A DNA stretch of 64,000 nucleotides from a virus (Duplodnaviria; Heunggongvirae; Uroviricota; Caudoviricetes), in IMG/VR virus record IMGVR_UViG_3300028833_000055, positions 174,446 through 238,445 of that record; one strand, given 5' to 3'. The translations under genes and the position numbers were made by a program. Below, piece by piece: positions 48,156 through 49,789 of this stretch (position 1 is its first letter; each line of letters begins with the position of its first letter). Under the pieces are notes generated by a model that was given only the letters and a program-made list of their open reading frames with translations, ran no database searches and was not told the origin of the DNA.

Positions 48156-49037
48156 ATGGGTGTATTAAAGAACTTGACGGACGAGTATTTCGGTAAGACC
48201 GAAAGAATGGAAGAGAAGATTGAACTTCCAAATGGGGTAGTCCGTGTAAATTTCACAGACAACAATGGAGTATTTCACCGTAACGGATATCGTGTTGAAA
48301 GCGGTAATAAGCAAATACTTAGGAAACTTATTGAAAGACTCATTGAAAAAAGAGGTCTTGAAGCCGACTTCAATGACATAGATGTTTCCAATATCACAGA
48401 TATGTCATTTCTGTTTAAAGGTGTTACCGAAAGAGGTGAAGAAACCATTTTTACCGATTTCAACGGTGATATTTCCGGCTGGGATGTAAGTAGTGTTACA
48501 AATATGGACAGTATGTTTCATGCCGCTAAACATTTTAATAAACCGATTGGAAAATGGGATGTAAGTAATGTTACAGATATGTGTATGATGTTTTGTGCCA
48601 CTTATGATTTTGACCAGCCGATTGGAAACTGGGATGTAGGTAAGGTTACAAATATGGAAGATATGTTTCGTGCAACCAGAAGTTTTAATCAGCCGATTGG
48701 AAAATGGAAAATTGGTAGCAGATTGAAAAAAGATGAAAAAATAAATATGTGTGGAATATTTCGGTGGGCTACAAAATTTAATAAACCTATTGGAGACTGG
48801 GATGTAAGCAAAGTTGCAATTATGAAAGATATGTTTTATTTTTCCGATAGTTTTAATAAACCGATTGGAAAATGGGATGTAAGTAATGTTACAGATATGT
48901 GTAGTATGTTTAGTGGTGCAATCAAATTCAATCAAGATATTTCAAATTGGGATGTAAAAAAAGTAAGAGATTATTTTAATATATTTTATAATTGTCCAAT
49001 AAAGAACAAATATAAACCGGAAAAATTCAAAAAATAA
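48156..49037 (+). CDS. DUF285/BspA-type leucine-rich-repeat protein with an MGVLKNLTDEYF leader
   Basis: Seven ~26-aa repeats F..A..FNQPIGKWDVSNVTDM..MF (Mycoplasma-type DUF285) plus the shared leader. Confidence 0.7.
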   Translation: MGVLKNLTDEYFGKTERMEEKIELPNGVVRVNFTDNNGVFHRNGYRVESGNKQILRKLIERLIEKRGLEADFNDIDVSNITDMSFLFKGVTERGEETIFTDFNGDISGWDVSSVTNMDSMFHAAKHFNKPIGKWDVSNVTDMCMMFCATYDFDQPIGNWDVGKVTNMEDMFRATRSFNQPIGKWKIGSRLKKDEKINMCGIFRWATKFNKPIGDWDVSKVAIMKDMFYFSDSFNKPIGKWDVSNVTDMCSMFSGAIKFNQDISNWDVKKVRDYFNIFYNCPIKNKYKPEKFKK

Positions 49038-49789
49038 TGGGTATACTACTTAATTTGACAAAGGAATATTTCGGAGAAATCGAAAGGGACGAAGACATAA
49101 TTGAGGGTGTCAACAAGGTATCATTCACCGATGGTAACGGCAAATTACATAAAAATGGTTATCAGCCGGAAGACGGTATGTTAAAGAAACTTATGCGAGT
49201 GCTTATAGAAAAAAGAGGCAACGAGGGGGATTTTAATGATGTAGACACTTCCCTCATAACCAGTATGAGTTATCTTTTTTATAATAATAGTAAATTCAAC
49301 GGAAACATTTCGGGATGGAAGTTTCCAAAAGTTAAATATATGAATGAAATGTTTAAAGGTGCAACTTCCTTCAATCAAGATATTGGAAAGTGGGAGTTCC
49401 CGGAAGTTGAAACTATGAATAATATGTTTGAAGGTGCCACTTCCTTCAACCGGCCTATCGGAAAGTGGGAGTTCCCGAAAGTTAATGATATGGGTGAAAT
49501 GTTTAAAGGTGCCACTTCCTTCAACCGGCCTATCGGAAAGTGGAAGTTTCCGGAGGTTAAATATATGAATGATATGTTTGCTGATGCAACTTCCTTCAAC
49601 CGGCCTATCGGAAAGTGGAAGTTCCCGAAAGTTGTATATATAAACGGTATGTTTAGAGGTGCGACTGCTTTCGACCAAGATATAAGCGAATGGGATGTTG
49701 AGAGTATTATTGGTACTGAAAATATGTTTAAGGATTGTCCTATAAAGGATGAACATAAACCAAAAAAATTTAGAAAATATGCCAAGTAA
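49037..49789 (+). CDS. DUF285/BspA-type leucine-rich-repeat protein with an MGILLNLTKEYF leader
   Basis: Six near-identical repeats FKGATSFNRPIGKW[EK]FP[EK]V..MN.MF; several repeat copies are nearly identical at the DNA level. Confidence 0.7.
   Translation: MGILLNLTKEYFGEIERDEDIIEGVNKVSFTDGNGKLHKNGYQPEDGMLKKLMRVLIEKRGNEGDFNDVDTSLITSMSYLFYNNSKFNGNISGWKFPKVKYMNEMFKGATSFNQDIGKWEFPEVETMNNMFEGATSFNRPIGKWEFPKVNDMGEMFKGATSFNRPIGKWKFPEVKYMNDMFADATSFNRPIGKWKFPKVVYINGMFRGATAFDQDISEWDVESIIGTENMFKDCPIKDEHKPKKFRKYAK

Follow-up and report, generated by a model that had tools for sequence, protein, structure and literature searches.

Proteins built of DUF285 repeats are among the commonest paralogous families of unknown function in jumbo phages and giant viruses, and the same kind of 25-residue repeat was described by Roske et al. 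2010 under the name PARCEL (PMC2996958). Two DUF285 proteins of the Aureococcus anophagefferens virus (AaV) are packaged in its virions (PMC7507832). In phage T4, the internal proteins IPI, IPII and IPIII bear a capsid-targeting sequence (Rao and Black 2010, PMC3012670); diverse and variable as these packaged and injected proteins are, this peptide is all that they have in common (PMC3012670). Here we describe two tandem DUF285 genes, A (48156..49037, + strand, 293 amino acids (aa)) and B (49037..49789, + strand, 250 aa), in a 64,000-nucleotide stretch of the genome of a large rumen phage of the Caudoviricetes (positions 174,446 to 238,445 of the IMG/VR record IMGVR_UViG_3300028833_000055; hereafter the window). 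The two genes encode ordinary repeat proteins; the notable part is the portable 20-residue leader with which both begin, a tag shared with about nine other families, including one family of the host, and one which, to our knowledge and in the libraries searched, is undescribed.

The leader, with the consensus MG[VI]Lx[NS]LTxEYFxxxxRxE[DE], opens five open reading frames (ORFs) in the window. Besides those of gene A (48156..48215, + strand, MGVLKNLTDEYFGKTERMEE) and gene B (49037..49096, + strand, MGILLNLTKEYFGEIERDED), it is found on three cargo proteins encoded on the opposite strand, namely g13777 (13091..13777, 228 aa, family F3), g25783 (25076..25783, 235 aa, family F5) and the very acidic g27621 (26389..27621, 410 aa, isoelectric point 4.1, family F4), the last with a copy of a promoter-like motif, CATAAATA, at 27648..27655. 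Past residue 20 none of these three proteins is related to another or to the DUF285 proteins. A profile built from the five leaders and searched against 1.84 billion representative proteins (E up to 0.001) recovered 120 matches, nearly all beginning at residue 1. They form about ten cargo clusters: DUF285 (25), F3 (24), F7 (15), F4 (11), F1 (7) and five smaller ones; apart from DUF285, the cargo families have no significant match in Pfam or PHROGs. Nine of the families either occur in phage-like contexts or are found in no bacterial genome, and those traced to contigs adjoin phage genes like those of the window; one, F1, is bacterial.

The unit of conservation is the peptide. A scan with a degenerate DNA pattern, which covered leader residues 1-12 only, detected five loci in IMG/VR and 38 in metagenomes, and residues outside the pattern were nevertheless conserved among the distinct leaders (R17 and E19 in 37 of 37, D/E20 in 36 of 37), with the conservation ending at residue 20. 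The invariant residues range freely over their synonymous codons (five for R17, five for L7 and four for T8), and the DNA upstream of the leader genes is unrelated among the copies; thus, selection acts on the leader peptide. The same free synonymous variation and differing upstream DNA rule out a DNA-level promoter or recombination site. As judged from these comparisons of sequence, the leader behaves as a self-contained N-terminal peptide module carried by about ten unrelated cargo families.

Several familiar N-terminal signals were considered and rejected. Inspection of the translations revealed no signal peptide in either DUF285 protein, the N-terminus MGVLKNLTDEYFGK having neither a hydrophobic core nor a lipobox; with the twin arginine also missing, Sec, Tat and lipoprotein signals are all ruled out on inspection. 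The N-myristoylation signal (MGxxx[STAGCN]) is discounted by the prokaryotic host and by leader variants that start with MS (at 8374..9309 of contig L017, 6884..7603 of contig L016 and in protein P0051); another variant has I in place of L7. Two further candidates, the double-glycine bacteriocin leader and the N-terminal extension of the ribosomal-protein-L27/Prp type of the staphylococcal phage 80alpha, appear to misfit in both spacing and cleavage residues.

A second recurrent N-terminus, MKxIxx[FY]x[ED][FY][IK]xE, begins four of 60 window ORFs, where about 0.8 would be expected (24569..25060 on the - strand, 34818 on the + strand, 57267 on the + strand and 62667..63584 on the - strand). It is also present on the proteins P0069, P0073 and P0120 and on ORFs in L002 and L018, and it occurs on DUF285 proteins that do not have the main leader. 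The L002 instance, MKRIKTYEEFIND, resembles the T4 sequence MKTYQEFIAE. This could be another tag or merely an AT-rich start-codon context.

Turning to the cargo of genes A and B, both proteins match PF03382 (DUF285) far above its curated cutoff of 25 bits (219.5 bits, E 9.3e-66 for gene A; 207.1 bits, E 6.1e-62 for gene B) and also exceed the cutoff of 30 bits for TIGR02167 'PARCEL repeat' (103 and 41.3 bits, respectively), a model that NCBIfam presently names 'PARCEL repeat-containing surface protein'. The ORF listing gives two tandem genes on the + strand, each with its leader, the stop of gene A overlapping the start of gene B (TAATG), and the window also encodes a gp32-like single-stranded DNA-binding protein (SSB), PhoH, a primase, a helicase, an anaerobic ribonucleotide reductase, endolysin-like proteins and a sigma-like factor. 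Hence the DUF285 identity and the phage setting proposed in the initial annotation are sound and ordinary, and the two genes are paralogues within a leader-tagged DUF285/PARCEL subfamily. The accompanying label 'BspA-type' holds as NCBI's naming of DUF285 proteins; it fails in the stricter sense, since PF13306, the leucine-rich repeat (LRR) family LRR_5 of BspA, matches neither protein at E up to 0.01. While both kinds of protein are LRR-like solenoids, the fold similarity of gene B to solved LRR proteins is weak: the top Foldseek hits in the PDB are all LRR proteins, among them the LRR_5-type structure 4h09, with a best E of 0.011 and template-modeling (TM) scores of 0.2-0.4.

An AlphaFold2 model, made for gene B only and from an alignment of 60 sequences, has a mean predicted local distance difference test (pLDDT) score of 93 and is confident over residues 21-250, with a beta-hairpin (25-44) and a helix (49-60) followed by the solenoid; residues 1-20 form a helix at pLDDT 53-56 that is unpacked against the domain. 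The model thus shows a predicted layout of a flexible 20-residue leader, a beta-hairpin and helix cap, and a solenoid of 25-residue units, and the sequence layout of gene A matches it. Among viral structures in BFVD, the fold is matched by DUF285 proteins of AaV, Megaviridae and jumbo phages with E down to 4e-15. DUF285 is matched in 108 phage records, at up to 40 places per record, and the paralogues of jumbo phages and giant viruses (Aeromonas phages D3 and LAh10, Klebsiella phage N1M2, Pseudomonas phage OBP and AaV) are, like those described here, multi-copy in large viral genomes; they differ in having no leader and in many cases reach a far greater length (900-1300 aa). All finds of the leader-tagged form of 174-320 aa came from phage contigs of rumen or gut metagenomes. 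As for direct look-ups, the exact sequence of gene B matched no record, a word-indexed protein search with residues 1-101 of gene A gave a single match (P0001), and a PDB sequence search with gene B, F1 and the 1291-aa and 721-aa proteins of the window gave nothing.

Across related phages the leader genes are changeable. The syntenic relatives L022, L037 and L050 share with the window genes for a 588-aa protein, a gp2-like DNA end protector, a 451-aa protein, a RuvC-like resolvase and a ClpP-like protease; at the DUF285 position, the window has A (293 aa) and B (250 aa), L050 has A' (265 aa) and B' (271 aa), whereas L022 and L037 have only B'' (273 aa), with gene A absent. Thus, the comparison of copy number among relatives that had been suggested at the outset yields one or two genes per locus with a varying number of units. 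Between the window and L022, the inserted or deleted segment is the body of gene A (about 48228..49028), and both window leaders align to the single L022 leader, which places the junction inside leader-coding DNA. A protein search with gene B brings up about 60 leader-tagged DUF285 proteins, whose lengths (174, 199, 224, 249, 273, 293 and 320 aa) advance in one-repeat steps, the orthologue in L017 having 249 aa. Between gene B and its orthologue in L022, 66 codons differ non-synonymously and 35 synonymously, with 36, 31 and 61 differences at sense-frame codon positions 1, 2 and 3, respectively, which indicates that the protein is evolving rapidly in the sense frame. Whole units and genes are therefore gained or lost between close relatives, and the DUF285 leader genes are accessory genes of fast turnover. 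The other cargo genes partake of this: at 9714..10325 of L026 the F5 gene of the window (25076..25783) is missing though the flanking proteins are 92-100% identical to those of the window, and the leader genes act as presence/absence cassettes. Elsewhere they form arrays of three to five consecutive genes that combine DUF285 with F3 or F8 cargo (L007 1677..5253, L018 10708..14315, L013 1230..3645 and L051 1016..3291), and there are 34-aa stubs with little beyond the leader (L017 7621 on the - strand, P0126, P0132 and P0165). A megablast of the 44-54 kb region against annotated phages found no match, so that the window stands without a close sequenced relative, and the flanking 451-aa and gp2-like proteins have no confirmed relative in IMG/VR.

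How might such a module be used? Since nine of the families are phage-like or found in no bacterial genome as against a single bacterial one, on which moreover the module is optional, the reader of the leader is more likely to be phage-encoded than host-encoded. By analogy with the T4 capsid-targeting sequence, we tentatively favor the interpretation that the leader is a phage-recognized address tag that loads fast-evolving binders into virions for delivery. Briefly, the leader would be read by phage-encoded machinery, most likely the assembling prohead, and the head protease may cut it off at its end, the conserved R-x-E-[DE]. Carried in the virion, the solenoids would next enter the host together with the DNA and there bind host proteins, for example defense factors, through their variable repeat surface. 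The flexible predicted helix leading into the invariant R-x-E-[DE] fits this proposal. The general plan is also that of the T4 internal proteins, where likewise a short N-terminal peptide alone is common to unrelated, fast-evolving and dispensable proteins encoded in variable gene clusters, and in their turnover the leader genes resemble those for the T4 internal proteins, which are likewise variable. Should the tag prove to load proteins into virions, its clients would be the repertoire delivered to the host by these uncultured rumen phages, the DUF285 solenoids would gain a role as fast-evolving injected binders, and a packaging tag would be ready to hand for engineering. Should it serve another purpose, that function can still be tested directly, thanks to the census of its clients.

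A number of observations weigh against this interpretation. The T4 capsid-targeting sequence is MKTYQEFIAE, and its protease gp21 cleaves in the context L/I-x-E; the leader has 20 residues as against 10, shows no sequence similarity to the T4 peptide, and its conserved glutamates lie outside the T4 context, with Thr two before E10 and Arg two before E19. The window showed no protease of the T4 gp21 type; the only one seen there is a ClpP-like serine protease (51763..52512, - strand; PF00574, E 2.5e-15), and its best PHROG (phrog_1827, E 1.7e-50) is 'ATP-dependent protease' rather than head maturation; the protein also matches several 'head maturation protease' PHROGs, which makes it a candidate for that function, and it has a weak match of the NfeD type. 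A tblastn search (E up to 10) of the annotated phage collection found the leader in none of its 50,697 records, and the leader is present on a chromosomal Bacteroidales family, F1, which a purely phage-internal address does not predict. Finally, the phage LR756500.1 encodes a leaderless 384-aa DUF285 protein directly after a 731-aa repeat protein resembling a tail fiber, so DUF285 modules may also be external. Given the missing sequence similarity and T4 cleavage context, and with packaging a proposal by analogy, we do not claim membership of the T4 class.

The bacterial family calls for closer scrutiny. Among 185,579 species genomes the leader was found in five metagenome-assembled genomes (MAGs), all of rumen or gut Bacteroidales or Paludibacteraceae and all on F1. 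The F1 proteins (320-460 aa) are zincin-like, with an HEYFH (HExxH) motif, and are encoded on Bacteroidales contigs of up to 660 kb (L045-L049, L011, L035, L038 and L043; e.g., L011 4863..6236), in the neighborhood of RmuC, a DUF2779 nuclease, an AddAB-like pair, housekeeping genes and true LRR_5 proteins that have no signal peptide and match PF13306 at E 1e-42. Of the 118 best F1 homologues, 117 have the HExxH motif and 80 the leader, while about 30 full-length ones without it start exactly at the leader's end; leaderless paralogues adjoin leader-bearing ones in L048 and L011. Hence the leader is optional on bacterial F1, which makes it a portable module of 20-21 residues that is not exclusive to phages.

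These data bear first on the alternative that the leader addresses machinery of the Bacteroidales host, such as a protease or unfoldase (with the leader as degron or activation peptide), a chaperone or a non-classical localization system, which the phage borrows so that the solenoids act in or on the infected cell. The zincin-like family F1 is chromosomal and abundant in MAGs of rumen Bacteroidales, and both the Hsp70 of the window (22614..24488, beside two leader genes) and its ClpP-like protease could read a short amphipathic N-terminal peptide. Yet classical export is excluded by inspection, with no hydrophobic core, twin arginine or lipobox, and against the one bacterial family stand nine that are not in bacterial genomes, in searches covering 1.84 billion representatives and 185,579 species genomes. 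A single and optional host client makes host machinery an unlikely reader of the leader, and we regard this alternative as a whole as unlikely, although the most serious of those considered.

A less probable proposal, which we rate as distinctly doubtful, is that the leader docks exchangeable modules (DUF285 solenoids, lectin-like domains and others) on the outside of the virion (tail, baseplate or capsid), as adhesins that aid adsorption, which was the second of the roles proposed in the initial annotation. It could draw on the typical surface location of bacterial PARCEL/DUF285 proteins (PMC2996958), the two DUF285 proteins in the AaV virion proteome (PMC7507832), the DUF285 gene that follows a tail-fiber-like gene in LR756500.1, and the F7 cargo, which has DUF1566/FISUMP-like motifs (GGSVLWADRDL, GWRVPT) and a weak Lcl_C match. 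The gene for g13777 likewise lies just upstream of large unannotated genes, possibly of the tail or baseplate, including a weak match to a T4 baseplate protein at 13..1044. However, the cargo also includes the very acidic 410-aa protein and small proteins without adhesin features, no trimerization or anchor domains are present, and no recognizable tail-fiber genes adjoin the locus, whose operon instead includes genes for a DNA end protector and a resolvase.

A third possibility, somewhat more doubtful still, takes the leader to be a propeptide or address that is read by a phage morphogenesis factor (for instance the head protease or the prohead core) and that rumen Bacteroidales have copied onto the effector F1. 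Here F1 might be a sensor that is activated once the phage protease cuts the leader off, or a 'Trojan horse' that would be carried inside the progeny capsids; in both cases the competition between phage and host would run through a single 20-residue tag common to them, and such a host copy would mark a new interface of phage-host conflict. Activation of CBASS by phage prohead proteases offers a recent precedent of protease sensing (PMC12991175). No similarity was detected between F1 and the window's own HExxH-bearing protein, the 451-aa HEVGH protein described below. Lastly, it is very improbable that the genes are selfish or near-neutral PARCEL cassettes, which keep the leader only as a recombination or translation-initiation sequence with no role as an address. 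In favor of this, PARCELs have been described as horizontally mobile repeat elements (PMC2996958), the gene A indel junction lies inside leader-coding DNA and 34-aa leader stubs such as L017 7621 (- strand) exist; against it, the codon usage of R17 (five), L7 (five) and T8 (four) reveals constraint on the peptide and not the DNA, the upstream regions are unrelated and the leader is retained on about ten unrelated cargo families.

The repeat arrays themselves share several features with the PARCELs: tandem amphipathic 25-residue repeats with the same conserved positions and a variable number of units, ORFs on the opposite strand, a scattered distribution and a link to mobile DNA. They differ in that the described bacterial members are mostly lipoproteins or otherwise membrane-targeted, with genes A and B carrying the phage-type 20-residue leader instead, and in the weak dyad symmetry of their coding DNA, in which only four inverted repeats, short, imperfect and 74-86% complementary, were found. 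The period is 75 nt, or 25 aa, in both genes according to Tandem Repeats Finder and a second repeat finder. The array of gene A (48369..49001, + strand) consists of an N-cap (48369..48458) and seven units, starting at 48459, 48534, 48609, 48684, 48777, 48852 and 48927, of which the fourth is lengthened to 31 aa (93 nt); that of gene B (49232..49744, + strand) consists of an N-cap (49232..49294) and six units, starting at 49295, 49370, 49445, 49520, 49595 and 49670. The initial description of tandem DUF285 units, six to seven per gene, is thus borne out, with the unit being 25 rather than about 26 aa. Across a logo of 182 units, the structural positions F1, N2, I5, W8, V13, M16, M19, F20 and A23 are fixed, whereas positions 14, 15, 17, 18, 21 and 22 are hypervariable.

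Several copies in gene B had also been described as nearly identical and ascribed to recent expansion or gene conversion. At the DNA level, the units are 68-81% identical within gene B, 60-84% within gene A and 48-64% between the two genes; three gene B units share an identical block of about 30 nt, and no pair is near-identical overall. The internal units of gene B are 78% identical within the gene and equally 78% identical to units of the orthologues in L022 and L017, so nothing points to homogenization specific to gene B. Concerted evolution of its units is thereby rejected, and the near-identity proves overstated, any homogenization being modest. What stands is a turnover of units, best seen in gene A: over the 3' 420 nt its L050 orthologue shows about 98-99% identity (by eye), and it lacks exactly one 75-nt unit, which maps to 48534..48614 (+ strand; columns 385-459 of alignment A5), a placement that is ambiguous by a few bases owing to the repeated sequence. 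The first 52 nt of the gene A unit 48534..48608 are identical to those of the unit 48852..48926. The difference to L050 is most readily understood as a recent gain or loss of a unit, and is the clearest recent repeat event at the locus.

The long antisense ORFs had been dismissed from the beginning as spurious, and rightly so. Both exist, one over gene A (48405..48935, - strand, 176 aa) and one over gene B (49181..49954, - strand, 257 aa), and both are by-products of the codon content of the repeats: they are codon-aligned with the sense frame, and they stay open because the repeat regions are free of TTA, CTA and TCA codons (sense codons 85-262 in gene A). Together with the substitution pattern, this rules them out as genes; in L022 the antisense ORF even exceeds the length of its sense gene. 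Open reading frames opposite the repeats are also on record for PARCELs (PMC2996958).

Genes A and B are the second and third genes of an operon on the + strand that begins with the CATAAATA motif (47539..47546), 33 nt upstream of its first gene. This gene (47579..48154, + strand; TTG start, with an alternative ATG at 47681) encodes the gp2-like DNA end protector (phrog_429, E 1.1e-8), which is kept beside the DUF285 genes in L022, L037 and L050. Gene B is followed by the 451-aa protein (49749..51104, + strand, probable start 49779), which has a DUF3008-like basic N-terminus and, on its translation, a zincin-type HEVGH motif; its orthologues in L022 and L037 begin with MPSVSKKQQ. The last gene encodes the RuvC-like Holliday junction resolvase (51101..51748, + strand; phrog_159, E 2.2e-9). 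A strong 12-bp hairpin (51736..51762), terminator-like on both strands, separates it from the convergent gene for the ClpP-like protease, which lies 2 kb from the DUF285 genes. The DNA end protector, the late-type motif and the nearby protease make up a context that fits, and does not prove, a leader that directs proteins into the virion, as supposed in the initial annotation.

The CATAAATA motif occurs 14 times in the window as against 4.4 expected, a count that none of 100 shuffles reached; the copies start at 11775, 13058, 15030, 22550, 27648, 34786, 37172, 43385, 47539, 56433, 57213, 57232, 60582 and 60601. In a comparison with the ORF map, all 14 lie between genes and share the orientation of the next gene, 12 of them at 18-36 nt before its start; they stand upstream of, among others, endolysin-like genes and large unannotated, possibly structural genes, and are absent before the SSB, NrdD, Hsp70 and helicase genes. 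The motif looks like a phage promoter, possibly of a late type, and is reminiscent of the T4 late promoter, TATAAATA. The sigma-like factor of the window is encoded at 15068..15709.

The remaining observations concern the wider window and its relatives. The 1291-aa protein of the window is 25-36% identical to proteins of huge phages (LR756500, Lak, Sphingomonas PAU, and Tenacibaculum and Flavobacterium phages); the neighborhood of gp264 in PAU is unannotated. LR756500.1 (L006 410..3771), a huge phage of 462 kb, is the closest relative in the annotated collection. The Hsp70/DnaK-like gene (22614..24488, - strand), assigned only by its N-terminal motif and length of 624 aa, lies about 600 nt downstream of a leader gene, and an SPFH/flotillin-like protein is encoded at 31223..32764 (- strand). 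NrdD has 1136 aa in L026 (4528..7938) as against 732 aa in the window (28170..30368), and the helicase gene of L050 (840..1826) has Hint/intein matches in Pfam; relatives thus appear to carry inteins in genes of replication and nucleotide metabolism that the window has without them.

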